Part shown: positions 1,617 to 18,256 of the stretch, in pieces
Numbering within the stretch: position 1 is the stretch's first letter
How the letters are laid out: each line of letters opens with the position of its first letter
NCBI GenBank assembly: GCA_937911235.1
Contig: CALDPN010000086.1
Location: forward strand, 1-59,638
Source: an uncultured Bacteroidales bacterium
Lineage (GTDB): Bacteria > Bacteroidota > Bacteroidia > Bacteroidales > Paludibacteraceae
Length of the DNA stretch: 59,638 nt
Direction: 5' to 3'
Made by a program: the position numbers and the translations under genes
Notes under the pieces: model-generated
Told to the model about the DNA's origin: nothing
Database searches by the model: none
Seen by the model: only the letters and a program-made list of their open reading frames with translations

Positions 1617-1617
1617 G

Positions 1618-2685
1618 ATGAGAAATATTTTAGTTTTAATAAGTATATTTTGTACACTATCATTGGTTGCACAAACTGTACGTGATATAGGGAAGGTTAC
1701 TTTAGGTGTTAAAGTGGAGGAAAATTCAACAGCGGATACAAAATTAGTTTCAAATCAATTAAGAAGCAAATTACAACAACTGGCTACACAAGCTGGTTAT
1801 TCTTCTTATGGAAATAATCAGTTCTATATATCACCTACTATTATTGTAAATATAGTTGATATAGCAGAAGGTGGAATGAGAACAATTTACGTTGTACAAG
1901 GAGAACTAAACTTGTCAATTGTTGGTGGATTTGAGAATACGATATATTCTAGTATGTCATTTTCATTTAAAGGCTCAGGAATTTCACAGGAAAAAGCAAT
2001 TCTGAATGGTGTATTAAAAATAAATTATTCTAATGTAGAAGATATATTTAATGTAGCACGTCATAAAATTCTAAAGTTCTATGAAAATAAGCAGGATGTA
2101 ATATTTTCCCAAGCTGATTTTTATGTAAAGAATAAGGAGTTTGAGAAAGCAATAGCATGTTTAATGTTAATACCTGAAGAACTATCTGACTTATATAAAG
2201 TGTCATTAACAAAAGCTATAGAAGTATATGAGAAACGTGATATTGAATTAAAAAGGCAAGCTGAAGCTAAGCGTAGAGAAGATAATGAGGCGATATTAAG
2301 AAAAGCTCAAAGTTTTATTTCTATGAGTAAGCCAGAGGAGGCGTTAAGAGTATTATGGAGTTATAGAGGTTTAGATAAGTATCAAAATAATTTATGTGAC
2401 TCGTTAATATTAAAATCAGAGAGGATGATAGGTGAGGAAAAAGCACGTGAATTAGAAAGGGAAAAAATGGAGTATGAAGATAGGCGATTACGAGAGGATA
2501 GAGAATGGAGATTGTATGAGAAAACAGTTGAACATGAAATGGATATAGAATCACAAAATGTGCAGTTAAATTATGCTATTTTAGAATCAGAAACAAAACT
2601 TGAGCAACAAAGAGTAGAATCAATAAAAACAATAGCATGTGAAGCTCTAAAAAATAATCCGAATTTACTTAACAATTTAAAATAA
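1618..2685 (+). CDS. secreted hypothetical protein with charged coiled-coil C-terminal half
   Basis: Signal peptide MRNILVLISIFCTLSLVAQ. The C-terminal ~150 aa is rich in E/R/K heptad-like sequence. Starts 1 nt after the previous stop. Confidence 0.5.
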   Translation: MRNILVLISIFCTLSLVAQTVRDIGKVTLGVKVEENSTADTKLVSNQLRSKLQQLATQAGYSSYGNNQFYISPTIIVNIVDIAEGGMRTIYVVQGELNLSIVGGFENTIYSSMSFSFKGSGISQEKAILNGVLKINYSNVEDIFNVARHKILKFYENKQDVIFSQADFYVKNKEFEKAIACLMLIPEELSDLYKVSLTKAIEVYEKRDIELKRQAEAKRREDNEAILRKAQSFISMSKPEEALRVLWSYRGLDKYQNNLCDSLILKSERMIGEEKARELEREKMEYEDRRLREDREWRLYEKTVEHEMDIESQNVQLNYAILESETKLEQQRVESIKTIACEALKNNPNLLNNLK

Positions 2686-2691
2686 TATATT

Positions 2692-4433: not shown

Positions 4434-4496
4434 TACTCTGAATCCTGCGGAATGTAGCAAAAATTTACACATTCCGCAGAGTTCAGAGTATTTTTC
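4434..4496 (+). terminator. rho-independent terminator after the four-gene operon
   Basis: TACTCTGAATCCTGCGGAATGT (4434-4455) pairs with ACATTCCGCAGAGTTCAGAGTA (4469-4490) at 20/22 bp with a 13-nt loop, followed by TTTTTC. Confidence 0.6.
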
Positions 4497-4513
4497 ATGA
4501 ACTATTAAAATAA

Positions 4514-4666
4514 AAGTTCCGGAAGTTTACAGAGGATATTAGTGGCTACTACCTAACAATAGATAACGAGAAATATCTTATCTGCGACCCTACATACATT
4601 GGTGCTCCAATTGGCGATTGTATGCCAGACTTCCAAAATGTATCAGCAGAAATCATCAAGATTTAA
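4514..4666 (+). pseudogene. possible C-terminal gene remnant (about 50 codons, no start codon)
   Basis: Open frame KFRKFTEDISGYYLTIDNEKYLICDPTYIGAPIGDCMPDFQNVSAEIIKI-stop, bounded upstream by an in-frame TAA at 4511 with no ATG. It has protein-like composition and lies in otherwise unassigned DNA. Confidence 0.2.
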
Positions 4667-4670
4667 CAAT

Positions 4671-6119
4671 TTAGCTTAAGCCAAACAAGTCATCCATTGT
4701 GATTTCTTTTTGAACTAGTCCACTATATTTACCATATTTGATACCATATGTGCTAATTATGGTTAGGTGTATGGCTTGTTTTGCAGAGAGTGTATCTTTG
4801 AGAGTTTCAATGCGATGTCTAAGTTTTGAGTCTTCTTCTTTGTCAATATTGTAGATGTCGCTTGCAAATTTCATTTCACAAAGATTTACAATATTATCTT
4901 TTCTAATAATTAGAAGGTCTATTTGTGCTCCTTCTCGGTTGTCATTGCCTTTTATGCTCCAAGCTGATATAGAGCAGTTGAGACCTTTTATTCCAAGAGC
5001 ATTTTTGATGTTATCAATATGTTGCCAACAAACTTCTTCGAATGCAATACCTCTCCAATACTTTAAAATGTCTGAAGTAATATTTTCAGTCATATAGTTT
5101 GTTTTGTTACTGTTTGCTTCTACATGCTTAAGCCAAAACAAACAGAAGTTGTCGATAAGTTTATATTTTACTACCTTTCCGTGCTCATTGTATGGAGTGT
5201 ATTTTTGTATGAAATCGCTTTCTATAAGTGATGTTAATGTATTTGTAAGTCCTCCTCCAAAAGGAATTCCAGTTTCTGCTGAGATTTCTTCTCTAGTGTA
5301 ACCTATATGTTTTGTAGAAAGTAGTTTGATTATTTTTTTGCAATCTTCTGGATTGCTGAATATTGCTTTAAATAGTCTATTGTATTCGTCTTTAAGTCGA
5401 GGATTCCTTCCAAAAAGTATTTCATCAATATTTGCAGATAGGCTAAAACCCTTTTTGAAATATCTTAGATAATATGGAATTCCCCCAAATACCATATATG
5501 CTTGAATAATGTCGTAGCGTGACATTATAATATTTTCGTGTTCAAAATATTCTTCACATTCTTTTAAAGTAAAAGGTGATAATTTAATCTCGTCTGTAAG
5601 TCTGCCATATAGTCCACCTTTATTACGAGATAAGTTTCCTAATATCCATGAAGTCGCACTTCCGCATACAATAAGCATAATATTATCCCTGCCGCTACAC
5701 CAACCATTCCAAAAACTTTCAAATGCAGGTAAAAATCCAGAGCGTGGGGTATCCATCCAAGGAAGTTCATCTAAAAAGATTACTTGTTTAGAGCCATCGT
5801 CAAATCTTATCAGTAGTTGTTTTAGTTGAAAAAAAGCTTCCATCCAAGTTTTGGGTTTGTCGTAGCCTTCTAAACCATGACTCAAAAGTGTATAGTAGAA
5901 ACTTTCTAATTGTGTTCTCATAAGATTCTTCTCACTTTCTTGATCTACAGGTGAAACTCCTGTGTGTTGAAAGGTGAAACGATTCTTAAAAACCTGATTG
6001 ATTAGAAAGGTTTTTCCAACGCGTCTTCTGCCATATACTGCAACAAATTCTGAACGGTCACTGTGATAGAGTTTTTCTAGCTCTTCTATCTCTTTTTTTC
6101 TGCCTATTATTACACTCAT
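4671..6119 (-). CDS. AAA+ ATPase of the archaeal-ATPase/DUF234 type
   Basis: Walker A VYGRRRVGKT and Walker B VIFLDELPWM. Size (~480 aa) and the C-terminal region are typical of ATPase+DUF234 proteins. Confidence 0.75.
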   Translation of the reverse strand: MSVIIGRKKEIEELEKLYHSDRSEFVAVYGRRRVGKTFLINQVFKNRFTFQHTGVSPVDQESEKNLMRTQLESFYYTLLSHGLEGYDKPKTWMEAFFQLKQLLIRFDDGSKQVIFLDELPWMDTPRSGFLPAFESFWNGWCSGRDNIMLIVCGSATSWILGNLSRNKGGLYGRLTDEIKLSPFTLKECEEYFEHENIIMSRYDIIQAYMVFGGIPYYLRYFKKGFSLSANIDEILFGRNPRLKDEYNRLFKAIFSNPEDCKKIIKLLSTKHIGYTREEISAETGIPFGGGLTNTLTSLIESDFIQKYTPYNEHGKVVKYKLIDNFCLFWLKHVEANSNKTNYMTENITSDILKYWRGIAFEEVCWQHIDNIKNALGIKGLNCSISAWSIKGNDNREGAQIDLLIIRKDNIVNLCEMKFASDIYNIDKEEDSKLRHRIETLKDTLSAKQAIHLTIISTYGIKYGKYSGLVQKEITMDDLFGLS

Positions 6120-6236: not shown

Positions 6237-6932
6237 TTATTCTGCCATCATATCCATACTGAATACTTGGTCTACGCCTTCGGCTGCTTGTTTTTCTTCG
6301 GTTGCTTTGCTTTCTTCTTGCTCTCCTGTTTGGAATGCTTGATATGCTTCTTCCACTTCTTTTTCTTTGTCTTCTTTTAGCTTTTTAACGGTGCCCATGT
6401 GCCAATCATAGATTTCTTGTAGTTTGTCTTTGGCAAGTTGCATGTTTTCTTCTGAGGCACCATTCATTTTTAATGCCACTTTACTACTACCATAAGAGAA
6501 AATAGCTTCAAGTTTTGTGTTGGTAATGTCGAATTGAGCCTTAATATATTCCATACACACATCGTGACGCTCTTTGTTCATTTTGGGCATGGTGTAATAT
6601 ATTACTATTTCATCTTCGCCAGTTATTTCATTTTTCTCTGTTTTTTCTTCTATTTCAAATTCTGGGTGTTCTAGTTTAATTGCTTTTGTGATAGGAAGGA
6701 CATATTCTTTGTCTTTAGCAGTAATGGCAAATTGTTTGTCATTTGGAATTGCCACAGATGCCACTTCTTCTAGGTTTAGTTCTTTACCTTCTATTTTAAT
6801 GGTGGCAGAAAGGAGTGCCATTGGATCTGCGGTGATACATAAATTTGACAAATGAAAATAAAACAGCATAGCGTGGCCGTTCATTTTTTGTTTGGTTTCG
6901 TCAAATAGTTCGTTAATAGTTTTGTTATTCAT
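6237..6932 (-). CDS. hypothetical protein with ribosome-recycling-factor-like layout and acidic tail
   Basis: By-eye alignment to Frr/RRF. [52 protein letters not shown] matches [69 protein letters not shown] matches LPPLTEERRKDLTKIVR. Lies 15 nt downstream of the DUF4280 gene on the same strand. Confidence 0.4.
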   Translation of the reverse strand: [231 protein letters not shown]

Positions 6933-6947
6933 AACTTGATGTTTTAA

Positions 6948-7337
6948 TTATTTACCTGTTGTGTTTGCTACGTGCCCCGGATTTGTAATTGAGATATTAC
7001 CACCGTAGGCACACATTGTTTTACAATTGTCGAGTAGTGCTGGCATGTTTGATACCAATTCTTTGCCTCCGGGAGCCCATGGAGACACAATCACTGGGAT
7101 GCAAGGCATAGGTGTTAACACTCCCATCGCTGCAGATGTGGCAGATGCTACCGTAGGATTTGCCATAGATTGGCACATGCCAAATGGCATTATGTTCATC
7201 ATTGGTGCAAAGTCCATTATATTAGCCTTGGGTTTGTTTTGAATCATTGGTCTCAATGGCACGGTAACCATAAGTGTGGATGGTGCCATTCCGAAACTGC
7301 ATTTTAGCATTGCTCCCATGCATACATACTTAGCCAT
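6948..7337 (-). CDS. DUF4280 family PAAR-like protein
   Basis: Hallmarks GAMLKCSFGMAPSTLMV, FGMCQS, PCIPV..SPW, ALLDNCKTMCAYGGNISITNPGH. Size 129 aa. Confidence 0.8.
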   Translation of the reverse strand: MAKYVCMGAMLKCSFGMAPSTLMVTVPLRPMIQNKPKANIMDFAPMMNIMPFGMCQSMANPTVASATSAAMGVLTPMPCIPVIVSPWAPGGKELVSNMPALLDNCKTMCAYGGNISITNPGHVANTTGK

Positions 7338-7375
7338 AACCTTAATTATTAAATACTTGTGATTAATACTGTGAG

Positions 7376-7383
7376 CAAAGGTA
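7376..7383 (-). promoter_or_regulatory. candidate -7 box (TACCTTTG on minus strand) for the PAAR-like operon
   Basis: Plus-strand CAAAGGTA lies about 40 nt upstream of the minus-strand ATG at 7337. Confidence 0.25.
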
Positions 7384-7618
7384 TTTAAAAATCAATGTCG
7401 CTATTTTTTTATTGCGTTTAATTAATTAAATTTTAATCTCTTTAGACTTGAAACGTTTGCAAATTAAAAAATTAACTATTTCTTACATAAAAGCCTGGTT
7501 TTAAGGACTTTTGTTTAACAATTTTAATCTTACACTTCTAAAACAATGCTCAAAAATAAAAATATGTTAGATATGTTAAACATTACTCTTAAAAGGATTT
7601 CTCAGTGTAAGTTTTACA

Positions 7619-7626
7619 TACATTTG
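7619..7626 (+). promoter_or_regulatory. candidate -7 box (TACATTTG) for the E1/baseplate operon
   Basis: TAnnTTTG match at the end of a 293-nt AT-rich divergent intergenic region. If used, the real E1 start is more likely the ATG at 7649 than the GTG at 7631. Confidence 0.3.
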
Positions 7627-7630
7627 CCAC

Positions 7631-8851
7631 GTGCTAAAAACAAATGGCATGGTAAAAAGATATGAAATAGAAACGGTAACGTTACAAGAGTGGGGAACCG
7701 ATATTTACCCTAAACTTTCTTGGTTTAAACAAAGCAAGGTTGCTTCTGCTCATGTTATGGTTGTGGGTTGTGGTGCACTAGGCAACGAGGTAATAAAAAA
7801 CTTGGCGCTTTTTGGTGTGGGCAATATTGTTTTGGTAGACTTCGATGAAGTTGAATACTCAAATCTTACTCGTTCTATTCTTTTTTGTAGTGATGATGCA
7901 AAAATGCATCGTTACAAGGTGGAAGCTGCTGCGGAGAGTGTAAAAAGAATCAATCCTAATATTAATGTGACCACGATAGTGGGCGATATAAGTAATAGTG
8001 TAGGACTAGGACTTATTCGTAAAATGAATGTGATAGTGGGCTGTCTAGATAATAGATGGGCTCGTTATACACTAAATCGCTTGTGTATGCGTGCAGGAGC
8101 TCCTTGGGTAGATGGAGGAATTAACGCTCTTGAGGGAGTGGCAAAGGTGTTTATCCCTGGCAAAAATTGTTATGCTTGCACACTTGAGCCTTCTGCTCTT
8201 GCAGAATTGAAGCGCAGTACTTCTTGCGCTGTGGCAATTAAAAGAAATCAAGAAAGTGGCAGAGTGCCTACTACTCCAGTGGTGGCATCTATTATAGGTG
8301 CAGTTCAGGCACAAGAGGCTATGAAACTGATTCATAAAGAAGAACTCCAAGGTGGAGAACTTACATCGCTTTGTGGCAAAATGTTTTGCTACGATGGAGC
8401 TTCTATGACAGTGAGGTTGGTCTCTCACGAGGCTTGGGACGAAGATTGTCCAGTTCACGAACATTGGTCTCCTGTGATAGAATCTCCTCTTACCAATCTT
8501 AATACAGTAGAAGAAGTTTTAGCATATATAAAAGATAAATTTTCAACAGACTCTGCCGAAATAGTTTTAAGAAATCAGGCATTTGTGGATTTTATTGAAG
8601 ATAGAATTACTGGTGAAAAATACAATATAATGCTACCGGAGGCTGAGGTGTCTAGTTTTATAGAAAATGATGAGGTGCTGCGCATCAAACCAATGGGGCA
8701 GTTCTATCAACATACCATACGTGGTATCAATGAAGATTTTAAATACAAAAACCTAACACTAAAACAACTTGGCATTCCAGAGCAAGATGTGTTACACGTT
8801 AGGGATGAGAGAGAATTTTACGTTGAGTTAGGGTCAACTCCTAACTTCTAA
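7631..8851 (+). CDS. ThiF/MoeB/E1-like adenylating enzyme (ubiquitin-activating-like)
   Basis: Rossmann motif VMVVGCGALGNEVIKNLALFGVGNIVLVDFDEVEYSNLTRSILF (GxGxxG...D.D.V..SNL.R). CYAC Zn-type motif followed by STSCAVA. About 130 aa of extra C-terminal domain. Start may be the ATG at 7649. Confidence 0.85.
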   Translation: MLKTNGMVKRYEIETVTLQEWGTDIYPKLSWFKQSKVASAHVMVVGCGALGNEVIKNLALFGVGNIVLVDFDEVEYSNLTRSILFCSDDAKMHRYKVEAAAESVKRINPNINVTTIVGDISNSVGLGLIRKMNVIVGCLDNRWARYTLNRLCMRAGAPWVDGGINALEGVAKVFIPGKNCYACTLEPSALAELKRSTSCAVAIKRNQESGRVPTTPVVASIIGAVQAQEAMKLIHKEELQGGELTSLCGKMFCYDGASMTVRLVSHEAWDEDCPVHEHWSPVIESPLTNLNTVEEVLAYIKDKFSTDSAEIVLRNQAFVDFIEDRITGEKYNIMLPEAEVSSFIENDEVLRIKPMGQFYQHTIRGINEDFKYKNLTLKQLGIPEQDVLHVRDEREFYVELGSTPNF

Positions 8852-8883
8852 CTCCTAACTCCTAACTCCTAACTCCTAACTTT
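8836..8883 (+). repeat. tandem heptamer array (AACTCCT) about 6.9 units
   Basis: AACTCCT AACTTCT AACTCCT x4 AACTTT. The E1 stop codon TAA (8849-8851) lies inside the array, and the next ATG (8884) follows it directly. Confidence 0.9.
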
Positions 8884-9666
8884 ATGAAAAACACAAACAT
8901 ATCAGAATTGAGGGCAGAGGTGCTACTAAATCACTTATATCCAGAGCAAACAGATAACTGGATAGTAAGGGATAAGGGTACTTTTTATCGTAATTATAGT
9001 AGCGATATTTTGCAATTAGATGAAAAACTATCTCAAGTTTCTCTTTCACGTGATGGTTTGTTGCGTTTGCTTCCTCAGGGATTGATAAGTGCAGAAGATG
9101 ACCTTAGAGGCAAAGATTTTCCAACAAAATATGAGGAACTTACTCGTCGCAAAAACAACTTAGAAGAACTTTTTGTTCCATTCGATTCTTGGCGTTTTAG
9201 AGATGCAGTAAGAGATGAAGAGGATTTAGCAGACCTACTTGCAAATAAGCTAAATATCTTACTTAAAACATATTACGGAGTAGATATAGAGTCGGAGCAA
9301 AATCCAGATGTGAGAGAACTGATGAAAATGTTGCCTTTAGCAAGTAGTATTCGTGGCAATTATCACAAGATAGGTGATATACTAATGGTCATTTTAAAAC
9401 ATAGAGTTACTACTCACATTTCTTGCTACAATTGGAGCGACAAATTTATTGATACACAACCAATGGTAAGTTACAAGGTTTGGATTTCTAAACTTACAAA
9501 AGAAGAATATATCAGCCTTGAAAAAAATATAGAAGACTTGGTAAGTTTTATTGTTGAATGGTTTATCCCTTTTGATACACGTTGTGTAATAGAACTTAAA
9601 ACCGAAGAAAAAGCTTCGTTAAACCACACAATGCTTCTAAACTATAATACAAAGTTGAGTTTATAA
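8884..9666 (+). CDS. hypothetical protein; possible TssG-like baseplate component (weak)
   Basis: Sits in the operon between the E1 and TssK-like genes. Only faint resemblance (IRGNYHKIGDILMVILKHRV...W) to the central region of TssG. Confidence 0.3.
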   Translation: MKNTNISELRAEVLLNHLYPEQTDNWIVRDKGTFYRNYSSDILQLDEKLSQVSLSRDGLLRLLPQGLISAEDDLRGKDFPTKYEELTRRKNNLEELFVPFDSWRFRDAVRDEEDLADLLANKLNILLKTYYGVDIESEQNPDVRELMKMLPLASSIRGNYHKIGDILMVILKHRVTTHISCYNWSDKFIDTQPMVSYKVWISKLTKEEYISLEKNIEDLVSFIVEWFIPFDTRCVIELKTEEKASLNHTMLLNYNTKLSL

Positions 9667-9688
9667 ATTTTCTAAATACTTAAATAAG

Positions 9689-10831
9689 ATGAATGTAAAT
9701 GCAAAAATAGATTGGCATGCCGGAATGGAGCTTACTGCTCAAACATTTATCGAATTAGACAAATGCTTAGAAAGAAATAGGCAAATAACAAACACAGTAG
9801 CATGTGGAAATCATTTTGGAATCCTTCCTACTACTACATTTTCTTGCAAAGGTGTGTTTGTAAAAAAGACATTGGAGATAACTCCACTTTCATTTATGGC
9901 ACTTATGCCATCTGGTAACCTACTTCATGTAGATGAAAATGTGGTGGTTGATATTCCTATTTTGTATGGAAAGGAATATTATTTAGGTTGCAAGCAAGGT
10001 GATAAAACCCGTAGTTTCGACAAAGAACAAGTGCCTTTTGTATCTCCAGTGGCAGAATGTGGTATTTACACTTTCGAAGATTTGGCGTCTGCTCAGGTGT
10101 TCCCTTTAATGAAATTTAAAGTGAACGAGGGTGTTTTCTCTGTAGATAAAGATTATATACCTCCATTTTTAACCTTAGCTTTAGATACACGTTTTCAAGA
10201 CTATATAAACACTTTTGCTTCAAAAATTTCTGTTTTAGCAAAACATAAAAATCTAGAATCATCAGAGGCGAAACGTTGCTTTCTACGTTATGCAAATGTA
10301 CTTAAAAACTACAGCACTACACATAGAGTTCAACATTTTATAGAACTACTACAAGAAATAGCAGCTGCTGTAGAATTTTATATAGTTCAAGTATTTACAG
10401 AGCATGTAATTGAACAAAAGAGTTATTCTCCATACGATATAGTATCTTACCTAACATGGCTAGATGGATATTTACATGGTGCTGCCACAATTCTAGATGG
10501 AGTTGTGCTAGAAGACAAATCAATAGACTTCGATGCTCTAAAACTACAGGTTAAAGAAGAAATTTACGAAAAAGTTTATCCAGAACTTAAAGAGGCGTTG
10601 TACAATGAATTGCACGAAGAACTTAAGAAAGAAATTTGGGATGAGCTATATTCTTCACTTTCAGATTACATCAATGGTAATTTCAGAAAAGAAATCTTTG
10701 AATTGTTAGAAGGAAGGCTTTCAGAAGAACTATACGAAAAATTGTATAAGACCTTGTACGATGGATTATACAATGCTCTATACGTGCCTGCTCCGGTAGA
10801 GGAAGAAGAAGAGTTTTTACCTTTAATTTAA
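9689..10831 (+). CDS. TssK-like baseplate protein with atypical helical-repeat C-terminus
   Basis: N-terminus IDWHAGMELTAQTFIELD resembles the TssK signature W.EGM.L.PQHFQQ.D. The last ~100 aa are EL/LY-periodic repeats. Confidence 0.45.
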   Translation: MNVNAKIDWHAGMELTAQTFIELDKCLERNRQITNTVACGNHFGILPTTTFSCKGVFVKKTLEITPLSFMALMPSGNLLHVDENVVVDIPILYGKEYYLGCKQGDKTRSFDKEQVPFVSPVAECGIYTFEDLASAQVFPLMKFKVNEGVFSVDKDYIPPFLTLALDTRFQDYINTFASKISVLAKHKNLESSEAKRCFLRYANVLKNYSTTHRVQHFIELLQEIAAAVEFYIVQVFTEHVIEQKSYSPYDIVSYLTWLDGYLHGAATILDGVVLEDKSIDFDALKLQVKEEIYEKVYPELKEALYNELHEELKKEIWDELYSSLSDYINGNFRKEIFELLEGRLSEELYEKLYKTLYDGLYNALYVPAPVEEEEEFLPLI

Positions 10832-10836
10832 AGCTT

Positions 10837-11274
10837 ATGATTACTCGTATTCCACTACAAATAAACTCAGGTGTTTTAGCCACTTATACAGATGTAAAAG
10901 AATCTATTGATGCACATGTAGAGTTGCTACTCACCACACCAGTAGGTAGTTGTGTCTCTGATCCAAACTTTGGTTTTATCTTAAATAATCTACGTTTCGA
11001 GATATTTAACGAAAACGAAGGTGTGGTGTTGAATGCAGACGAAGACCCTTCTGAACTATACGAGAAAAAGGTGTCTGGTTCTTCTAGAAATGTAAACACT
11101 TTTGCTATAGAACTTAAACAACTCATTGAACATTACGAACCAAGACTAGAAGATGTGCTTGTTACAATGTCATATGTGAGAGAGCATCGCAAAATTTACA
11201 TAACTATTAAAGGTGTTATCATAGAAACACAAACAAATTATCAGTATCAAACTTCTATTAGAATTTGGCAATAG
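10837..11274 (+). CDS. GPW/gp25-family baseplate wedge protein (TssE-like)
   Basis: SIDAHVELLLTTPVGSCVSDPNFGF matches the gp25 core I...L.T..G.R...P.FG. Size 145 aa. Confidence 0.7.
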   Translation: MITRIPLQINSGVLATYTDVKESIDAHVELLLTTPVGSCVSDPNFGFILNNLRFEIFNENEGVVLNADEDPSELYEKKVSGSSRNVNTFAIELKQLIEHYEPRLEDVLVTMSYVREHRKIYITIKGVIIETQTNYQYQTSIRIWQ

Positions 11275-11277
11275 ATT

Positions 11278-12972
11278 ATGAGAAAAAAAATATTTGCTAC
11301 AGGAGAGATGGCTAAAGAGCTTCAAAAAGAAGCTATGGCTATTTGGCGTATGGGAAGTAATGAAGAGAACTTTGAGGGGATGGAAAATGACCCAGTGGTC
11401 TCATTACTTATGACAGCCTTGGCGTATCAAGAATATACAGCTGATAATGAACTTTCTCGACTAAAAAATGAGGTACTAGAAGACTTCTCTCGTATGCTTA
11501 TCCCATACGAATTATGTCATGCGAAACCTGCAAGTGTGTTGGTGCGAACAAACACAGAAGAGCAAGTAAATAAGGTGTCGCTTCATTCTGGAATGTCATT
11601 TACGCTTAGTGAAAATAAATTCAATTTTATGCCACTTCTAGATACCACAGTTTACAATGCAAAACTAGACTCAGTGGTGCGACTAGATGCTCGTAGATGG
11701 AAGGTGAGCATAAACTTCAAAGAAGAAATTTCTTCTCTAGAGGGTTTCTCATTCCTTGTTGATAATCACAACTTCAAAGACCTAAACATTAGCCTCGGAG
11801 GTAAACGTATTTCTCTTATAAAACCTTGGCACTATGCAAATTTGCCACTTTCTAAGTGTTTCTCTATAGATTCAATGCTATACAATGAAACCTTGGCATT
11901 TGACGCTAGCACCACATGGTTCGATTTATTTGCTCAGCAAAACAAACGCATGTTTGTGGTAGAAAAATATGCAACAGACGATATTTTTACTTGCCCTGTA
12001 GACAAGATAGATTTAGTTTTTGAATTTGTGGGAATAACAGATGATTTTGTCTTTGATAAATCTCAACTAATCATAAACACAGTTCTACTTGTAAATACAA
12101 GTTTAAAAAATGCTACACTGTCTGTAAACAATCCTATTGTGCGTATTGCCGACGAAGAAGGAAATGCCTCAGAAAAACTTTTGCATTTAATGCGTCCTTC
12201 TTCTGAACAAATGTATAAAAACATTTCTTTCACTCTTCGTCGTTCTGCAATAGAGCGTTTCAATGTGGATAGTTTATTAAGACTTCTACACTGCCTAATA
12301 GACAAATATTCTACAGACTACTACGCATTTATGCAGATAGACAGACTAAAAAATGGTTTAGAAGTAAATCGTTTATATCAATGGCTTGTAAATCTAGCAA
12401 AATACCTAGAAGATTCACCAATGTCTGTGTCTTCTGGTGTGTATTTGTTACTTAAAAAAGGCAAAGATAGTTTGCTTGAAGACGAAAGTCTCACACTACA
12501 ATACCTTATCACTCAAGGTGCTATGATAAACCCATATTTAAGTACACGTGCGCAGTTCAATGTGCCAGTAGGCATCTCAATGCAAAAAACTAGCGTGGTG
12601 GCAGAGCCTGTTTTAGGCTTGGATGAAGTAGTTGGAGTGGATGTTCAAAACTCAATGTCTAGATATTATATGGTCACAAACAACAGACTTGTTACACCTG
12701 CCGATATCAAGATTTTCTGTTACAACGAGCTCCTAAGAAGATACAATATAGATTCTAGTATTATTCGCAATATAGTGGTGACAAATGCAATTCATTCAGA
12801 AAGAGGTCATTGTGGTTTTGAAACCAAAGTAGAGATACTTATTATAGATGATGTATTTGTCAAACGTAGTTTGGCAGGAAAAATAAACGAAGTAGAACTT
12901 ATTCTACAAAAAATGATAGAGGTTCGTAGTTCTTTCGCCTATCCAGTTCAAGTGAATATTCGTATTGTTTAA
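11278..12972 (+). CDS. TssF-like baseplate protein
   Basis: NDPVVSLLMTALAYQEYTADNELSRLKNEVLEDFSRMLIPYELCHAKPASVLV parallels the TssF N-terminal block DP.VERLLEGFAFL.AR....LDD.FP.....LL..L.P..L.P.PS. Size 564 aa. Sits immediately after the gp25-like gene, as in tssE-tssF. Confidence 0.55.
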   Translation: MRKKIFATGEMAKELQKEAMAIWRMGSNEENFEGMENDPVVSLLMTALAYQEYTADNELSRLKNEVLEDFSRMLIPYELCHAKPASVLVRTNTEEQVNKVSLHSGMSFTLSENKFNFMPLLDTTVYNAKLDSVVRLDARRWKVSINFKEEISSLEGFSFLVDNHNFKDLNISLGGKRISLIKPWHYANLPLSKCFSIDSMLYNETLAFDASTTWFDLFAQQNKRMFVVEKYATDDIFTCPVDKIDLVFEFVGITDDFVFDKSQLIINTVLLVNTSLKNATLSVNNPIVRIADEEGNASEKLLHLMRPSSEQMYKNISFTLRRSAIERFNVDSLLRLLHCLIDKYSTDYYAFMQIDRLKNGLEVNRLYQWLVNLAKYLEDSPMSVSSGVYLLLKKGKDSLLEDESLTLQYLITQGAMINPYLSTRAQFNVPVGISMQKTSVVAEPVLGLDEVVGVDVQNSMSRYYMVTNNRLVTPADIKIFCYNELLRRYNIDSSIIRNIVVTNAIHSERGHCGFETKVEILIIDDVFVKRSLAGKINEVELILQKMIEVRSSFAYPVQVNIRIV

Positions 12973-12988
12973 TAAAAAAAATAAGATT

Positions 12989-13306
12989 ATGGAAGAATTT
13001 TTCTTAAACATAGTTTATAAAAACAAGAAGGTACGCTTTCGCATTATAAATCCAGAAGCACCTCTTAGTACGTTAATGAGCAACCTACGCCATGCCATAG
13101 GTAAAGATGGAAGACTTATTTTCGATTTCCCATCTGTAGATAATACAGGTGCTCCACTAGATTATTTCTTTGGAAAAGAAGACGCTGAGATAAATGAAAT
13201 TAGAGTTTTACGTCCAAGAGTAGGTAAAGTGGATCAAACTTTAGCCGACTATAGCATCAAAAATGGCGATACAGTATATTTAATTCCAGACCCATTCCCA
13301 GGATAG
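12989..13306 (+). CDS. small ubiquitin-like (beta-grasp) protein candidate ending in Gly-stop
   Basis: About 105 aa from the ATG at 12989 (the track start at 12965 is TTG). Alternating beta-like segments KVRFRII...LADYSIKNGDTVYLIPDPFPG, with the C-terminal residue Gly directly before TAG. The stop is 2 nt before the E2 start. Confidence 0.5.
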   Translation: MEEFFLNIVYKNKKVRFRIINPEAPLSTLMSNLRHAIGKDGRLIFDFPSVDNTGAPLDYFFGKEDAEINEIRVLRPRVGKVDQTLADYSIKNGDTVYLIPDPFPG

Positions 13307-13308
13307 TT

Positions 13309-13869
13309 ATGAAAGAGTTAACTGGACGAAATAGACGATTGCAACACGAATGGAAAACCTTAGAAAAAAGGCTAGCCTCAAGGTCTGATATAGACTTTTC
13401 CATTTCAAAACTAAATGCACAAGGTATGCCAATAGGCTATGAAGTAACATATCATGTGAAGTCTATTTGTGGAGTTACAAACATAGAAAACTTAGACAAG
13501 CCAGGCATTGATAATGAACCAATATTTGCAGAAGAATTTAAAATGCAAATAGAAATACCAGAAGATTATCCTTGTATAGATGCAATGCCAGAGTTTTGCT
13601 TCAAAACAAAAGATTCAGAGGGCAATTCAATACCTCACCCTTGGCACCCAAATATTAGATATTTTGGAGAAATGGCAGGTAGAGTTTGTTTAAATGCACC
13701 AGATAGTTATATGGATTTGGTATGGTATGTAGAGCGAGTGGCTCTATATCTAAGATACGAACTATATCATGCCAAACAAGAGCCTCCTTATCCAGAAGAT
13801 ATTACTGTGGCACGTTGGGTACTTCGCCAGGGAGAACCAATGAGGTGGATATTTTTTAATCAAAAATAA
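13309..13869 (+). CDS. UBC-fold ubiquitin-conjugating (E2)-like protein
   Basis: EDYPCIDAMPEFCFKT...HPWHPNI (HPN at 13645-13653)...GRVCLNAP (Cys127 at 13687-13689). This reproduces the E2 pattern YP..PP...F...i.HPNi...G.iCLdil. Confidence 0.7.
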   Translation: MKELTGRNRRLQHEWKTLEKRLASRSDIDFSISKLNAQGMPIGYEVTYHVKSICGVTNIENLDKPGIDNEPIFAEEFKMQIEIPEDYPCIDAMPEFCFKTKDSEGNSIPHPWHPNIRYFGEMAGRVCLNAPDSYMDLVWYVERVALYLRYELYHAKQEPPYPEDITVARWVLRQGEPMRWIFFNQK

Positions 13870-13876
13870 TAAAGTG

Positions 13877-15055
13877 ATGAATAAAGCTGTTTGTAAATTA
13901 GTTTGTTCTTTGGTTGTTTTAACAACTGCATTTATGGCATCATGTGCTAGTAAAAAGGCCATTGAAATGCCTATAAAACCATACCAAGTAATAACAGTAT
14001 CAGAAGAAACTCCTTATACAGAAACAATTTCTACCAAAGAAGGGGCTAAAGATATGGATATGCTCCTTAAAATAGAGTATAGCGAGAACGATAATACATT
14101 AAATGTAAGTATTACTTCACAACATCATTTATTTGGTTTTAAAAACAATTCACTTTATAAAAATGTAATCAGAAACAAGAAAATTTCTCTAGTACGACTT
14201 CCATATAAAGTGGTATCAGAACCAGATATGACTTATAGATTGTCTAAAAATATCCGTAATAATATTTCTGGTTGTAACGATAAACATACATTTAAAGCCT
14301 GGATTTCTACTACAGGGTTGCATTCACAAATGTCAGACTATGAAATGGTTACAGAAATTCTAACCCAAAAGTTTGACATTGTAGGCGATACCACTATTAC
14401 AGTTACTTTAGGCGATATTATGATGATGGAGCGTTCGGTATCTAAGAAAAATCGTTACGACCTTACTTTCTATACCAACCTAAACAAATCATATGTGGTA
14501 AATATCAAGCGCAATCCGTGTTTAGGTAAGGAAGCAGAACTAGATTCTACCCAAACTTTGTTGGATGAAATTAAAGAAAACTATACATCACTAGCAAGTA
14601 AATACCCAAATGTTGAGAATCTTACACAAGAAACTCTTTTAGCTTTAGAAGAGGTGAGGGTGAAATTTGAAACTAAATACGAAAAGAAAGAAACTACAAA
14701 TGAATGCCCAGCCATAGCATCTATGCTAGAAAACTATAATACATACGTGGATTCTATAGCAAAACTAGCAGACGTGAAAGCTGAATTTGCTCATAAAAGA
14801 CCAAGACTTTCAATGCCGGCAGACCAACTATTAGCAGTGGCTCGTATGGTAGATACCAATGTGGCTTCATGGCTAGTGTCAAATGACGTGGTAGAAAAAG
14901 CCGATTTAGTTAAGCGAAACAGACACCTTATTGATGATATAAACAAGAAAATATCTAATAAAATGAGAATGGATACAGAGCAAACCAAAGCTTACGCTGT
15001 ATTCAAAAAAGCAGAAAGATACTTCAACGAAACTTGTCAAAACAAAAAGAAATGA
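13877..15055 (+). CDS. lipoprotein, unknown function
   Basis: Signal peptide with lipobox LTTAFMASC. ATG at 13877 (the track start at 13874 is GTG). 4-nt overlap with the next gene. Confidence 0.55.
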   Translation: MNKAVCKLVCSLVVLTTAFMASCASKKAIEMPIKPYQVITVSEETPYTETISTKEGAKDMDMLLKIEYSENDNTLNVSITSQHHLFGFKNNSLYKNVIRNKKISLVRLPYKVVSEPDMTYRLSKNIRNNISGCNDKHTFKAWISTTGLHSQMSDYEMVTEILTQKFDIVGDTTITVTLGDIMMMERSVSKKNRYDLTFYTNLNKSYVVNIKRNPCLGKEAELDSTQTLLDEIKENYTSLASKYPNVENLTQETLLALEEVRVKFETKYEKKETTNECPAIASMLENYNTYVDSIAKLADVKAEFAHKRPRLSMPADQLLAVARMVDTNVASWLVSNDVVEKADLVKRNRHLIDDINKKISNKMRMDTEQTKAYAVFKKAERYFNETCQNKKK

Positions 15056-15873
15056 GAAAGTTTTTTGTCTTAATATTATGCTTTGTTTGCTTTACGGCTA
15101 CTTGGGCGCAAGATACTCCTGCAGAAGCAAAAGTGGACCCATTTGCAGCACTAGAGGTGAGAGGTAGATTGTCTCTTTTTATAGAAGAAATAGAAACATT
15201 ACTTGCCAATGTGTCTTCTGCAAAACAAAAGCAACTTAAAAAAGCAGAAAAGTCGCTTAAAGCAGTAGAAAAGAAGTGGACTTTGTATAGCACTGCTCAT
15301 GGAGATGTTATTGCTTCAGAAGAAAGCCTAATGGAAGTAGTTGTGGCATACGAAGAGCGCAAACAATTATTGGCAGACTCTATAGCATCACAACTTCACA
15401 AACTCGACTCTTACGATAAGTTTGAGAGTGCAGAAGTTTTTATAGAATCTCAAATAGAACCTTATAACGAACTATATAACCAAGCAGTAGAATACTCTAT
15501 GCTAAAACAAACTGCATCACTACTAGAAAAACTTAAAACCAAAGAAGGACTTACTTTTAGTGATATTACAGCTCGTTACGAGGACTCTAAAACTATATCA
15601 GAAGAATATCCAGCCCTTAAAAAGAGAATGGAAGAATTAGAAGAGGAGTATATAGAAATTAAAGGACTTTCAGAAAAAATACAGGCTGCAGAATATAAAC
15701 CATTTCTAACTAGGATAAAAGATTACCTATATAGTTTTGCTGCAGTGGCAATGCTACTTATGTTTGCCAATATGGTACAAGCAAAAATACAAGCATCCCA
15801 ACAAATGCGTAAGAGCGCCAAAGAGTATCAAGAATTATTAAAGAAAAACGAAGAAGAAATACCTTCCATTTAA
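15052..15873 (+). CDS. exported coiled-coil protein with C-terminal membrane anchor
   Basis: ATGA overlap start gives MRKFFVLILCFVCFTATWAQ as signal peptide. Long helical E/K-rich body. Hydrophobic segment YLYSFAAVAMLLMFANMVQA near the C-terminus. Confidence 0.5.
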   Translation: MRKFFVLILCFVCFTATWAQDTPAEAKVDPFAALEVRGRLSLFIEEIETLLANVSSAKQKQLKKAEKSLKAVEKKWTLYSTAHGDVIASEESLMEVVVAYEERKQLLADSIASQLHKLDSYDKFESAEVFIESQIEPYNELYNQAVEYSMLKQTASLLEKLKTKEGLTFSDITARYEDSKTISEEYPALKKRMEELEEEYIEIKGLSEKIQAAEYKPFLTRIKDYLYSFAAVAMLLMFANMVQAKIQASQQMRKSAKEYQELLKKNEEEIPSI

Positions 15874-15880
15874 ATATATA

Positions 15881-18256
15881 ATGGCTATGAAAACTTGTAA
15901 ATTTTTATGTTTAGCATTTTTAATGCTAATAGCAGTAGGTTGTTCAGAAGGTAAATTAGATAACACTACCAGTGAAACTGAAAATCTTGAAATTTCTGAT
16001 ATTCAATTCGATGAGAATTATAAGGATTTCTCAATAGGGGTGCATTTCAAAGATGCCTTTATGCCAAAGAAAAGACTTCACATTGGCAAGATAAAACTAA
16101 ATGTTACAGAATATGATTCTGATATGAATAAGATTACAGAATCTGCTCAGCCAATTTTCAGAGGTGCTAAAAACCTTCATTCAGAAAAGATAAAAGATTT
16201 AGGCATCAAAGGTCTAGTGCTAGTGGACTTGTCTTTAGACGAATTGCAAATAGAAAAAGAGAAAGGGGCAGTAGAAAGTTTGAGAGAGTTTGTTTTTGAA
16301 AACCAACTATATGTAGCCTTTATGCAAGATGGCAAGGTGAGCCCAACTTATCCTGCTACAGATTATGTTCTAGACAATTACTTTATTCCAAATCAAGCTC
16401 CTAAAAAATTGTTTGGTAGTATAGTTGCTAAGATGGATGAGATGAAAAGTGAAGATTCTGAATTTTTCTCACAAACAGCAACAGAAAATAAAGTACTTAT
16501 TGTGTTTTCCGACGGACATATCTACAATGGTGATAAACCTATAGATCCTAAACACTTTGAGTATCAAGAAATATTACTAAACCAAACAAAGCAAGACGAT
16601 AAACTACAATTTTGTTATGTAAACTTCAACGAAGAAAAAGACGATGAGTTTGCAGTGGAGAATGATGTAGAAAACATATTCACATACATTTGCAAAGGCT
16701 TGGGTGGAGCGTATATTCCAGACGTGGATATGAAACAAATAGCTACAGAGGTAATGCGTGGTAGAGATAGTGAAAAAGTGGATTTTAGACTAAAACTTAC
16801 AAATCCAGATCATAAAATTTACCGTGGCGACGAAAGAATACTTAAGGTTAATTGTATGTATGATGGAGAACTACTTTTCACAGGTTCTAAATCATATTCT
16901 TTAGGTAGTGTGTATAAACCTGTTATAGTCAATGGTTCTGGTTTATATAGCGTATTAATACAAGCCGCAGTATTTACATTAATATTAGTATTATCCATCT
17001 ACGTGGTATTTCAACTAATAGAACCTTATGTGAAATATCGTATCTTCAAGTATAAATACGTAACCAAATATACAGGGCCAAATATGAGTTGGAGAGGCAT
17101 CCAAGTGCCAGATTCATGCTACTATTGTAAAACACCATTCGAGATAGGCGACGAGATAGTAGTGAAATGTGAGCACGTTATGGATATGTCTTGTTGGAAA
17201 GAAAATTTATACAGATGCCCTGAATATGGCAGAAGATGCAATTTAGGAAAGCACTATTACAACGACAAAAACATTTTCGATAAGAAAAATGCACCTTATT
17301 ATATGAAGTGGCTTTTAGCTGGTACATTGGCAGGGTTCGTAGCATGGTTCTTCTTTATATTAGGCACCTTCCACTCAGATCTGTCATTTATAAATGGAAT
17401 ATATGATAAGGTTTCACAATTTGACCCTTTAAGAGATATGGTGTTTGGTTTACACAATAATGTAACATCAGGCATGTTTGCTGCACCATACTTTGGTTTC
17501 TTTATGTGTTTCTGTTTAACCCTTGCCTTAAGTTTACTTTCTAGTCATGGTAAATGGTTGTACAAACGCACAGTTGTGGTACTTATAAAATCTTTAGTCG
17601 CAGGTATATGTGGTTATCTTACATATCTATTAGTAGTGTTGGCACTAATCGCATTCAAGCTAAAAGGTTATTATTATATGATAGACTGGATACCATGGGC
17701 ATTAAATGGTTATATAGTGGCATATGCAGTAGCATTTAAAACAGATATTAAACTGAAAAAAGCATTAATGGGTGCAACTATTTCTATGGGATTCTCAATA
17801 GCCTCAATGTATCTTTGGAATTATTCAACACATTCACACATAGATACTAGAGATTTATTATTGGTAAGTTGTTTAATATATGGCATCGGCTTAGCAGCCA
17901 GTCTTGCTATAAATTTTCCACAATCTGAACGCTATTTTATAAAGGTGGAAGGACCAATTAAAACTATGGAGTTGGCACTTTATAAGTGGATGAACGCACA
18001 AGTTATAAACCGCTGCGTTACCATAGGTAAGTCTGTGGATTGTAATCTGCAAATGTCTTGGGATATAAATAGTGCCATTGCCCCAAAACAAGCAGAACTA
18101 AAAATGATAGGAGGTAATATCTATCTTATTCCACTTGAAAACGGCGTCACTTTCAAAGGTAAACCAGCTATCATAGACAAACGCATTCACCTATATCACG
18201 GCGACAAGTTTGTGATAGGACAAACTAAGTTCACATATGTAGAACACGATGTGTAA
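15881..18256 (+). CDS. multidomain membrane protein: lipoprotein signal, vWA-like domain, TM, RING-like Zn finger, polytopic TM block, FHA-like C-terminus
   Basis: Lipobox LIAVGC. vWA-like strands GLVLVDLSLD and VLIVFSDG. C413-x2-C-x13-C-x-H-x5-C-x7-C-x6-C453 (17117-17239). About six further hydrophobic helices. C-terminal TIGKSVDCNLQM...AELKMIGGNIYLIPLENGVTFKGKP...LYHGDKFVIGQTKFTY has the FHA topology pattern with divergent pThr-binding residues. Confidence 0.6.
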   Translation: MAMKTCKFLCLAFLMLIAVGCSEGKLDNTTSETENLEISDIQFDENYKDFSIGVHFKDAFMPKKRLHIGKIKLNVTEYDSDMNKITESAQPIFRGAKNLHSEKIKDLGIKGLVLVDLSLDELQIEKEKGAVESLREFVFENQLYVAFMQDGKVSPTYPATDYVLDNYFIPNQAPKKLFGSIVAKMDEMKSEDSEFFSQTATENKVLIVFSDGHIYNGDKPIDPKHFEYQEILLNQTKQDDKLQFCYVNFNEEKDDEFAVENDVENIFTYICKGLGGAYIPDVDMKQIATEVMRGRDSEKVDFRLKLTNPDHKIYRGDERILKVNCMYDGELLFTGSKSYSLGSVYKPVIVNGSGLYSVLIQAAVFTLILVLSIYVVFQLIEPYVKYRIFKYKYVTKYTGPNMSWRGIQVPDSCYYCKTPFEIGDEIVVKCEHVMDMSCWKENLYRCPEYGRRCNLGKHYYNDKNIFDKKNAPYYMKWLLAGTLAGFVAWFFFILGTFHSDLSFINGIYDKVSQFDPLRDMVFGLHNNVTSGMFAAPYFGFFMCFCLTLALSLLSSHGKWLYKRTVVVLIKSLVAGICGYLTYLLVVLALIAFKLKGYYYMIDWIPWALNGYIVAYAVAFKTDIKLKKALMGATISMGFSIASMYLWNYSTHSHIDTRDLLLVSCLIYGIGLAASLAINFPQSERYFIKVEGPIKTMELALYKWMNAQVINRCVTIGKSVDCNLQMSWDINSAIAPKQAELKMIGGNIYLIPLENGVTFKGKPAIIDKRIHLYHGDKFVIGQTKFTYVEHDV

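Follow-up and report, generated by a model that had tools for sequence, protein, structure and literature searches.

A contig of 59,638 nucleotides (nt) from an uncultured Bacteroidales bacterium of the Paludibacteraceae (GenBank CALDPN010000086.1, referred to at its full length as the window) carries a ten-gene operon in which a set of ubiquitin-type enzymes is interleaved with genes of a type VI secretion system (T6SS). The set comprises an E1-like activating enzyme, a candidate ubiquitin-like modifier (Ubl), an E2 conjugating enzyme and a membrane protein that may act as a RING-type E3 ligase. On balance, the best interpretation is that the window holds the half of a T6SS locus that encodes the baseplate and the membrane anchor, and that this T6SS belongs to a distinct lineage from gut and rumen Bacteroidales, in which the Ubl would be ligated to a T6SS component and would control the machine. 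Ubl conjugation as a post-translational T6SS switch had been raised as one of two hypotheses in a first-pass annotation made from the sequence alone, and it is the reading of the locus that we favour. Ubiquitin-like conjugation in bacteria has until now been linked with defence against phages, namely Bil, the cyclic-oligonucleotide-based anti-phage signalling systems (CBASS) and probably Bub, and T6SS control has so far been explained by phosphorylation and transcription. The locus joins these two fields: a full E1-E2-RING-Ubl set is built into a contractile secretion machine. A scan of one genome per species found the E2 gene in no fewer than 166 species of Bacteroidales from gut and rumen, among them members of Prevotella, Alistipes, Bacteroides and Parabacteroides. 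The carriers comprise Xylanibacter ruminicola D31d, Prevotella sp. ne3005, Bacteroides mediterraneensis An793, Caecibacteroides pullorum, Mediterranea massiliensis and Millionella massiliensis, and since several carriers are cultured strains, the question is directly testable.

Conserved gene order across Bacteroidales

Gene models of the window were taken from a list of open reading frames (ORFs) with translations, and the encoded proteins were searched against Pfam, NCBIfam and PHROGs profiles. The ten genes occupy positions 7631-18256 of the plus strand and are separated by 32, 22, 5, 3, 16, 2, 7, -4 and 7 nt, values that depend on internal starts for the Ubl (ATG at 12989), the lipoprotein (13877) and the coiled-coil protein (ATG at 15052). 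In order, they encode the E1, a 260-amino-acid (aa) protein (p260), a TssK-like protein, a TssE-like protein, a 564-aa protein (p564), the Ubl, the E2, a lipoprotein, a coiled-coil protein and a 791-aa membrane protein. The coordinates and strands of all twelve ORFs in the first-pass annotation are reproduced in the ORF list, and so are the gaps that it gave for the operon once the three internal starts are adopted.

The window proteins were compared by tblastn with the 80 best-matching loci, which represent at least five Bacteroidales families. The ten-gene order is identical in every locus that is not interrupted by a contig end. The Ubl and the E2 are present in all 80 loci, the lipoprotein and p564 in 79 each, TssE in 78, TssK in 77, p260 in 76, the coiled-coil and RING proteins in 75 each, and the E1 in 74. 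These loci belong to Candidatus Enterocola/Paludibacteraceae, Bacteroidaceae, Prevotella/Xylanibacter, Alistipes/Rikenellaceae, Parabacteroides, Mediterranea and Millionella, and one of them (L010, Candidatus Enterocola/Paludibacteraceae) is 98% identical, which makes this the probable genus of the window. Such an arrangement is far beyond chance. The association of ubiquitin-type with baseplate-type genes, which the first-pass annotation had described for this DNA, thus recurs in the same order elsewhere. Additionally, when clustered at 90% identity, homologues of the E2 from metagenome-assembled genomes of Bacteroidales form more than 510 clusters. A Bacteroidales-type locus, with E2 identities of 56-59%, also occurs in bins that bear the labels Sphaerochaetaceae, Subdoligranulum, Oscillospiraceae and Firmicutes (L049, L053, L071 and L075); mis-binning of these contigs is more probable than an occurrence of the system outside Bacteroidota.

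Ubiquitin-type enzymes and a candidate modifier

The identities of the E1, the UBC-fold E2 and the RING-H2, FHA and vWA domains are well supported. The E1-like protein, whose likely true start is the ATG at 7649, carries an adenylation domain of the ThiF/MoeB/Uba type, and its family profile matches UBA7, UBA6, UBA1, SAE2, MoeB and ThiF at E-values of 1e-33 to 1e-25, the first five of these at 1e-33 to 1e-27. Invariant residues in the family alignment include GCGALGNE, DFD, NCYAC, Cys199 and DCPxH. Cys199 lies 16 residues past the first CxxC and is the putative catalytic cysteine, and the protein has a conserved C-terminal extension of approximately 125 aa. In the E2, the residues H113, P114, N115 and C127 are invariant and stand in the context HPWHPNIR...AGRVC(127)LN. 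An AlphaFold2 (AF2) model of this protein reached a predicted local distance difference test score (pLDDT) of 78.7, and the top 50 structures returned by Foldseek were all E2 enzymes, with E-values from 1e-5 and a probability of 1.00. In a profile comparison with the PDB, UBE2K came first (0.018). The E1/ThiF and UBC-like E2 assignments of the first-pass annotation are therefore retained.

The candidate modifier is the most conserved protein of the locus, with 69-95% identity over the 80 loci as against 22-60% for its neighbours. Its C-terminus, DPFPG followed by the stop codon, is invariant in 20 of 20 aligned sequences, which have a mean column identity of 84%. The gene ends in Gly-stop, and the Ubl would need no processing. 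Matches of the family to Pfam all fall below threshold, and they are to Rad60-SLD in 19, to ubiquitin in 17 and to YukD in 11 of the 20 members, with no other recurrent families; the window sequence alone matches Rad60-SLD at 0.002. Moreover, hhalign aligned the family with human ubiquitin at an E-value of 6e-4 over 19 columns, and the last strand aligns to the TLSDYNIQKESTLHLV of ubiquitin. These sub-threshold matches suggest a ubiquitin-like modifier of the beta-grasp fold. Of what had been claimed for this protein at first pass, the terminal glycine has proved invariant and the beta-grasp fold stays at the level that these profiles suggest. Among the conserved locus genes that were scanned or had precomputed Pfam matches, neither a deubiquitinase (JAB or other) nor a peptidase domain was found.

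The membrane proteins

The last three genes of the operon encode candidate components of a membrane complex. Neither the lipoprotein (79 of the 80 loci, identity 22-83%) nor the coiled-coil protein matched a family in Pfam, NCBIfam or PHROGs. The 791-aa protein is a candidate RING E3 ligase and membrane hub. Its AF2 model has a pLDDT of 86.8 and a predicted template-modelling score of 0.77. The N-terminal part shows a lipoprotein signal with an invariant Cys21, a periplasmic beta-sandwich, a vWA-like domain and a long first transmembrane (TM) helix at residues 355-393. The C-terminal part follows with a compact cytoplasmic domain at 394-470 (pLDDT 93-96), six TM helices at 475-676 and a beta-sandwich at 685-791. 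The helices of the model place the RING-H2 segment, between TM1 and TM2, and the C-terminal FHA-like domain on one face of the membrane. At the level of E <= 1e-3, this protein is matched by 342 cluster representatives.

The RING segment (394-470) keeps the pattern C-x2-C-x13-C-x-H-x2-H-x2-C-W-x6-C-x6-C, in which C413, C416, C430, H432, C438, W439 and C446 are invariant; W439 is the Trp that contacts E2. Its profile matches RNF24 (3.8e-4), ZNRF1, RNF126, synoviolin, RLIM and AMFR at 4e-4 to 0.08, with RING-H2 ligases at 4e-4 to 3e-3. All 34 RING segments examined match both Pfam Prok-RING_1, below its cut-off, and zf-RING_2, and the window protein alone matches zf-RING_2 at 0.019. Foldseek aligned the model with FHA domains at 1e-4 (template-modelling score on the target 0.63-0.79), including the cytoplasmic, docking FHA-like domains of YscD and PscD of type III secretion systems, and with vWA domains at 7e-3. 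Precomputed PF00498 (FHA) matches are weak in the homologues. The layout of vWA-like, TM, RING-like, polytopic and FHA-like parts that had been proposed at first pass is borne out by the model, the Foldseek matches and the RING-H2 profile. When mapped by eye, the Arg, Ser and His residues by which FHA domains bind phosphothreonine are absent, and GKS, APxQA and a non-conserved Asn stand in their places. The FHA-like domain thus looks like a docking domain, and the form of the switch hypothesis in which Ubl conjugation replaces threonine phosphorylation is weakened.

The RING membrane protein of some genomes is larger, at about 1070-1100 aa (L030, 1089 aa; L037, 1066 aa; P0258; P0284). L030 and L037 have no separate coiled-coil gene; it appears fused to the gene of the RING protein, which supports a physical interaction of the two proteins.

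Baseplate proteins and the complete secretion locus

Two of the remaining operon genes have acceptable identifications as TssE and TssK relatives. The TssE/gp25-like protein exceeds the Pfam cut-off for GPW_gp25 and further matches NCBIfam TIGR03357 (2.3e-10, below cut-off) and a PHROG of baseplate wedge subunits (2.7e-7). The TssK-like protein matches TIGR03353 below its cut-off (Table 1). Both assignments had been made at first pass and hold up in these searches. The N-terminal part of the TssK-like protein corresponds to the shoulder domain; its C-terminus (residues ~290-365, positions ~10560-10790) consists of Glu/Tyr-rich helical repeats of the E-L-Y type, at the place where canonical TssK has its head domain.

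The two other cytoplasmic proteins, p564 and p260, had been proposed as TssF-like and possibly TssG. No curated model supports either name: p564 had no hidden Markov model (HMM) match in 26 family members, NCBIfam TssF included, and no PDB sequence match by profile, and p260 had no match in Pfam, NCBIfam, PHROGs or PDB sequences. Real annotated genes from eight plasmids served as TssF and TssG references. Against the eight annotated TssF proteins, p564 gave an hhalign E-value of 0.006 and was colinear over 438 columns from a shared N-terminal DP motif. The comparison of p260 with annotated TssG (0.094) was not significant. Among the 1337 ORFs of the 80 loci, a TssF HMM ranked the p564 family first and second and placed it at 13 of the top 25 positions; a TssG HMM ranked the p260 family first, at only 7.4 bits, and placed it at 10 of the top 25. 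The joint chance of both top ranks would be about 0.003 if all ORFs were equally likely, a rough value as family members are not independent. Furthermore, no other conserved cytoplasmic protein of the locus is left unassigned, and the sizes and positions of p564 and p260 fit TssF and TssG. Taken together, these comparisons hint at p564 as TssF and p260 as TssG; of the first-pass proposals, the faint sequence resemblance stood and a curated-HMM match did not materialise.

The extent of the locus was established by clustering all flanking ORFs and then by inspecting wider neighbourhoods in related contigs. The recurring locus begins with ClpV, a TssB-sized gene, TssC, two or three Hcp/TssD genes, a 155-aa Hcp-like gene, VgrG, a family termed F13 and DUF4280. 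It continues with a PEGA protein, the RRF-like gene, E1, p260, TssK, TssE, p564 and Ubl, and closes with E2, the lipoprotein, the coiled-coil protein and the vWA/RING/FHA membrane protein. ClpV (740-840 aa; Clp_N/AAA/AAA_2/ClpB_D2-small) is the first gene of full loci, and TssC matches PF17541 at 5e-100 in L029 and 2e-100 in L142, with precomputed matches in L081, L084 and L093; both genes lie outside the window. So does the 154-aa gene ahead of TssC, which is named TssB by position only. Hcp/TssD (PF17642, 2e-28) and VgrG (1000-1450 aa; Phage_base_V, Phage_GPD, DUF2345) were seen in related and same-species contigs. The related loci hence contain a contractile sheath, an Hcp tube, a VgrG spike, a PAAR-like tip and ClpV. 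The PEGA-domain protein occurs in 60 of the 80 loci and is absent from the clade of the window. Genes before ClpV and after the RING protein vary from locus to locus and none is conserved, so ClpV and the RING protein mark the borders of the locus. The first-pass annotation had pictured a stand-alone baseplate module joined to a ubiquitin-type cascade; the baseplate genes stand, and the stand-alone framing gives way to one half of a complete T6SS locus.

No Pfam or NCBIfam match to TssJ, TssL or TssM was obtained in the window operon, and none is present in the precomputed Pfam lists of full loci. Pfam includes models for TssN and TssO. At the sequence level, the three membrane proteins and the PEGA protein gave no Pfam match to TssN, TssO, TssP, TssQ or TssR at E <= 1. 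Pfam and NCBIfam likewise showed none of these five families in the operon proteins of the window, and neither they nor TssJ, TssL or TssM came up in the other conserved locus genes for which a scan or a precomputed Pfam result was at hand. The locus has neither a conserved kinase nor a conserved phosphatase. A T6SS lineage of this kind, whose conserved genes have no sequence match to TssJLM or TssN-R, is relevant to surveys of antagonism between gut bacteria.

Proposed mechanism and competing explanations

The proposal draws on the gene content, synteny, domain identities and topology described above; from these we infer that conjugation occurs, as well as its target and its effect. The 105-aa Ubl would be made with its C-terminal Gly already free, making processing unnecessary, and would be adenylated by the ThiF-type E1, with a thioester probably formed on the invariant Cys199. 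It would then be transferred to Cys127 of the UBC-fold E2, and the charged E2 would be brought to the inner membrane by the cytoplasmic RING-H2 domain of the 791-aa polytopic lipoprotein. There, a lysine of a T6SS component located where membrane and baseplate meet may be the site to which the RING domain ligates the Ubl. Possible acceptors are the RING protein itself, TssK, or another baseplate subunit held by the adjoining FHA-like domain. The modification could control baseplate docking, sheath assembly, firing or re-use. The ubiquitin-type genes are interleaved with core T6SS genes, E1 standing before p260 and Ubl-E2 between p564 and the membrane proteins, and are not merely appended to them, which argues for a role in the machine itself.

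Several points weigh against this proposal. The mechanism is inferential throughout, in its conjugate and thioester as much as in any phenotype. The beta-grasp fold of the Ubl depends on sub-threshold profile matches, and the TssF and TssG assignments are weakly supported. The lack of a deubiquitinase in the locus is unusual for a reversible switch. The fifth zinc ligand of the RING domain, a His in more than 90% of the homologues, is Asp435 (17183-17185) in the window and in L002. Finally, the window lacks sheath, tube and spike genes, so that a complete system in this genome is not demonstrable from it.

The same genes could serve recycling or quality control instead of an assembly switch, an unlikely alternative in which the Ubl would mark fired, contracted or misassembled complexes of the baseplate or membrane, or the sheath, for extraction by the AAA+ unfoldase ClpV. 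This idea is modelled on ubiquitin and Cdc48/p97. It would agree with the constant position of ClpV as the first gene of the full locus, with the absent deubiquitinase, which fits a one-way tag, and with a RING domain on the membrane complex, where spent baseplates stay. However, it is established that ClpV binds the contracted sheath directly in the T6SSs studied so far, and no ubiquitin-binding domain was found in ClpV here, nor is one known. It is likewise improbable that the Ubl handles cargo, either by being attached to effectors, Hcp, VgrG or F13 for loading on the spike or tube or by being itself delivered into target cells. The E1, E2 and RING proteins are cytoplasmic or located at the inner membrane and are interleaved with baseplate genes, away from the variable cargo region, and effector genes differ between loci whereas the ubiquitin-type genes are constant. 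Moreover, we know of no T6SS in which cargo is loaded covalently. In favour of a cargo role, the extreme conservation of the Ubl would suit a universal handle, F13 and DUF4280 lie between VgrG and the ubiquitin-type genes, and one toxin secreted by Bacteroides fragilis is a homologue of ubiquitin, according to a passage of PMC10942478 that cites this case.

The other hypothesis of the first-pass annotation was a Bil-like anti-phage defence, in which baseplate-like proteins sense phage tail intermediates and steer Ubl conjugation. A candidate defence gene of the PDC-S27 family is indeed inserted next to the locus in the window, but it is a sporadic insertion absent from most loci. The ubiquitin-type genes are part of a full firing apparatus with ClpV, sheath, tube, spike and PAAR-like tip, and PADLOC matches only the adenylation domain of the E1 (Cap2 models) and returns nothing for the E2, Ubl or RING proteins. 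With no JAB or other deubiquitinase in addition, the defence hypothesis is not supported and appears very improbable. Equally little can be said for an absence of conjugation, whereby the Ubl would be a non-covalent subunit, like YukD or the beta-grasp domain of TssN, or a sulfur carrier, alongside E1, E2 and RING proteins that would be degenerate or perform other chemistry. The weak match to YukD in 11 of the 20 Ubl sequences would fit such a subunit, and YukD, a Ubl of type VII secretion systems (T7SSs), is not known to be conjugated. Against it stands the invariance, over more than 20 divergent genomes, of the nucleotide and zinc motifs and Cys199 of the E1, the HPN motif and Cys127 of the E2, the RING ligands, the E2-contacting Trp and the terminal Gly of the Ubl. 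Invariant catalytic hallmarks are not expected of relics. A sulfur-carrier role for the Ubl was rejected on the same grounds, as the E2, the RING and the catalytic residues are invariant.

Ubl conjugation as a control of the T6SS, our preferred reading, can also be taken further. It is possible, and suggested here only tentatively, that the locus represents a fifth kind of T6SS in which Ubl conjugation is obligatory for assembly and a RING E3 of the membrane complex covalently attaches the beta-grasp protein to the membrane or baseplate interface, in trans and on demand. If true, the Ubl would do in trans what the fixed ubiquitin-like domain of TssN in T6SSiii, or EccD/YukD in the T7SS, does in cis. 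On this reading, if true, the 791-aa protein would be the first RING E3 in bacteria whose cellular substrate is defined, and the system would be the first secretion system under the control of ubiquitin-type modification. The locus also bears on the pre-eukaryotic origin of ubiquitin-type signalling and of RING ligases.

Comparison with known systems

None of the closest known systems combines a T6SS with a ubiquitin-type cascade. T6SSiii (Russell et al. 2014; GA1-3 of Coyne et al. 2016) is found in the same host order and shares TssC (PF17541), TssD/Hcp (PF17642), ClpV, VgrG, a DUF4280/PAAR-like tip, and relatives of TssE and TssK. The membrane proteins are also put together from comparable building blocks: a lipoprotein with a vWA domain, helical periplasmic proteins of elongated shape, a protein built as a beta-sandwich, and a polytopic protein whose hub domain is cytoplasmic. 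In T6SSiii, the vWA lipoprotein is TssR, the elongated helical periplasmic proteins are TssO and TssQ, and the polytopic TssN has a built-in cytoplasmic ubiquitin-like (beta-grasp) domain for which docking of the baseplate via TssK has been proposed (PMC10781749). This precedent of a fixed domain makes a Ubl role at the membrane and baseplate attractive; the beta-grasp candidate here, in contrast, is a separate and potentially conjugated protein. The locus further differs from T6SSiii in the missing TssN, O, P, Q and R matches, in baseplate proteins that have diverged below curated HMM thresholds, and in the addition of an E1, a free Ubl, an E2, a membrane RING, an FHA-like domain, an RRF paralogue and a PEGA protein.

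With BilABCD, Bub (6E/DUF6527) and CBASS Cap2/Cap3, the locus shares a co-encoded ThiF-type E1, an E2 and a Ubl with a C-terminal Gly, here a candidate for the beta-grasp fold that the Ubls of those systems have. It departs from them by the presence of a RING E3, the lack of a JAB or other peptidase, a Ubl that needs no processing, an E2 near to the canonical UBC type (HPN) and the position of the genes inside a secretion-system locus. The complete set of E1, E2, RING E3 and Ubl resembles that of the prokaryotic E1-E2-Ubl-RING(-JAB) operons, although the present locus has no Rpn11/JAB, its RING lies within a 791-aa vWA/seven-TM/FHA lipoprotein, and it is embedded in a T6SS. Such operons were reportedly predicted by Burroughs, Iyer and Aravind in 2011 (Pfam Prok-RING_1). 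The abstract of that work is said to mention an oxyanion-hole motif of the E2 and, for the E1, a ubiquitin-fold domain at its C-terminus, and the work reportedly may touch on related bacterial TM-RING proteins or YukD-like Ubls. According to the Pfam text, bacterial members of Prok-RING_1 have TM helices. The precomputed Pfam lists of the RING protein, which are partial, gave a weak FHA match only and no Prok-RING_1, so this RING family may not have been in the 2011 set. A system with E1, E2, RING E3 and Ubl from Caldiarchaeum has been reconstituted (PMC5654768).

The PpkA/PppA/Fha-TagH pathway of T6SSi resembles the locus in linking an FHA-fold domain with a T6SS and in the notion that assembly is controlled post-translationally, but in the locus no kinase or phosphatase was found and the FHA-like domain is fused to a membrane protein. 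Surveys of T6SSs in Bacteroidales list only GA1-3 together with an unclassified locus of Prevotella stercorea, and ubiquitin goes unmentioned in a review of accessory factors of the T6SS from 2026. In the searchable literature, which does not cover Burroughs et al. 2011 (Burroughs, Iyer and Aravind) and 2012, no paper linking a T6SS with an E1, E2 or Ubl was found, and within those bounds the novelty asserted in the first-pass annotation, that no described bacterial Ub-like system is embedded in a contractile-injection baseplate module, held.

Other features of the locus and the window

The coordinates of the features are collected in Table 1.

Table 1. Features of the T6SS-associated locus in the window, with the evidence for each
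Feature	Position	Strand	Evidence
RRF-domain paralogue, 231 aa, acidic C-terminus	6237..6932	-	Pfam RRF 6.5e-14, above cut-off
DUF4280 protein, 129 aa, PAAR-like spike-tip candidate	6948..7337	-	Pfam DUF4280 2.1e-33
Divergent AT-rich intergenic region, 293 nt	7338..7630	.	Sequence read; both promoters probably inside
E1-like Ubl-activating enzyme (ThiF/MoeB/Uba adenylation domain)	7631..8851	+	Pfam ThiF 1.4e-53
p260, 260-aa conserved cytoplasmic protein, TssG candidate	8884..9666	+	Position, size, elimination
TssK-like baseplate protein, 380 aa	9689..10831	+	TIGR03353 1.3e-9, residues 5-260, below cut-off; Pfam T6SS_VasE 0.096
TssE/gp25-like baseplate wedge protein, 145 aa	10837..11274	+	Pfam GPW_gp25 4e-13, above cut-off
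p564, 564-aa conserved cytoplasmic protein, TssF candidate	11278..12972	+	TssF profile comparisons
Candidate ubiquitin-like modifier, 105 aa, free C-terminal Gly	12989..13306	+	Invariant DPFPG-stop
UBC-fold E2, 186 aa, HPN 113-115, catalytic Cys127	13309..13869	+	Pfam UQ_con 8.7e-5, below cut-off
Lipoprotein, ~392 aa, lipobox FMASC, candidate membrane-complex component	13874..15055	+	Signal and lipobox read from sequence
Coiled-coil protein, candidate membrane-complex component	15052..15873	+	Signal peptide, periplasmic coiled coil, C-terminal TM, short basic tail
791-aa inner-membrane lipoprotein, candidate E3 ligase/membrane hub	15881..18256	+	AF2 model, Foldseek, RING profile

The DUF4280 and RRF-like genes diverge from the operon at the AT-rich spacer, as had been noted at first pass, and both families are recognised by Pfam. 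The spacer probably holds both divergent promoters. The Bacteroidetes-type -7 promoter motif TAnnTTTG lies ahead of both divergent genes (7619-7626 on the plus strand, 7376-7383 on the minus strand); it is not enriched in the window, with 101 occurrences against 86 expected, so it is consistent with divergent promoters and speaks only faintly for them. The DUF4280 gene is present in 66 of the 80 loci with 55-100% identity and mostly stands directly after VgrG and F13. The RRF-domain paralogue is a conserved accessory gene of these T6SS loci (57 of 80) and adjoins DUF4280 or E1 in full loci. We know of no role for an RRF fold in any secretion system. On the other side of the operon, genes for a shikimate dehydrogenase, a VTT-domain protein and a TPR protein, as identified by Pfam, begin directly at 18260. 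These housekeeping genes are syntenic in the closest relatives only (6 of 80 loci), so position 18260 is the right edge of the accessory block, where the first-pass annotation had placed it.

On the left side, unrelated genes have been inserted, owing to which the tail genes are not visible in the window. Contigs whose DUF4280 protein is identical to that of the window illustrate the arrangement. In L095-L097, two Hcp genes, the 155-aa protein, two VgrG genes and F13 lie directly beyond the RRF-like gene. In L098 and L099, a 482-aa STAND ATPase is inserted at this place, and L099 adds variable genes. In the window, a 482-aa STAND/ATPase_2 protein is encoded at 4671-6119 on the minus strand and matches the PADLOC candidate defence family PDC-S27 at 3.6e-191. 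L098 and L099 have near-identical DNA (98.8-99.4%) and an ATPase_2 gene of equal size at this site, and an L004 protein is 99% identical; L095-L097 and L010 lack the gene, which has the look of a mobile insertion of a single gene within the T6SS locus.

Farther left, a block of four plus-strand genes at 295-4407 encodes a 150-aa lipoprotein-like protein, a DUF6175 protein (2.7e-74) and proteins of 355 and 571 aa. The block does not stand beside the T6SS in any related locus, and non-coding matches of the left part of the window to the F13-adjacent sequence of relatives are confined to 1-238 and 4436-4521. Together, these observations suggest an insertion or a variable cargo region. The 571-aa protein was considered as a diverged F13 and rejected, as there is no similarity. 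The F13 family itself (~600 aa; L081:8232-9995, L095:11160-12971, L010:1118-2923) has no Pfam family, always lies between VgrG and DUF4280, and by eye is beta-helix-like with a coiled-coil segment; its role could be that of an effector common to these loci, of an adaptor or of an extension to the spike.

Two further arrangements were seen in metagenome contigs. In one contig (L084:11126-13819), an 897-aa protein with BNR/sialidase and ricin-type lectin domains is encoded between DUF4280 and E1. In L128 and L132, the order ClpV-TssB-TssC-(Hcp)-DUF4280-PEGA is followed by unrelated genes in place of E1 onwards. The locus can thus be split, and the genome of the window may be organised likewise.

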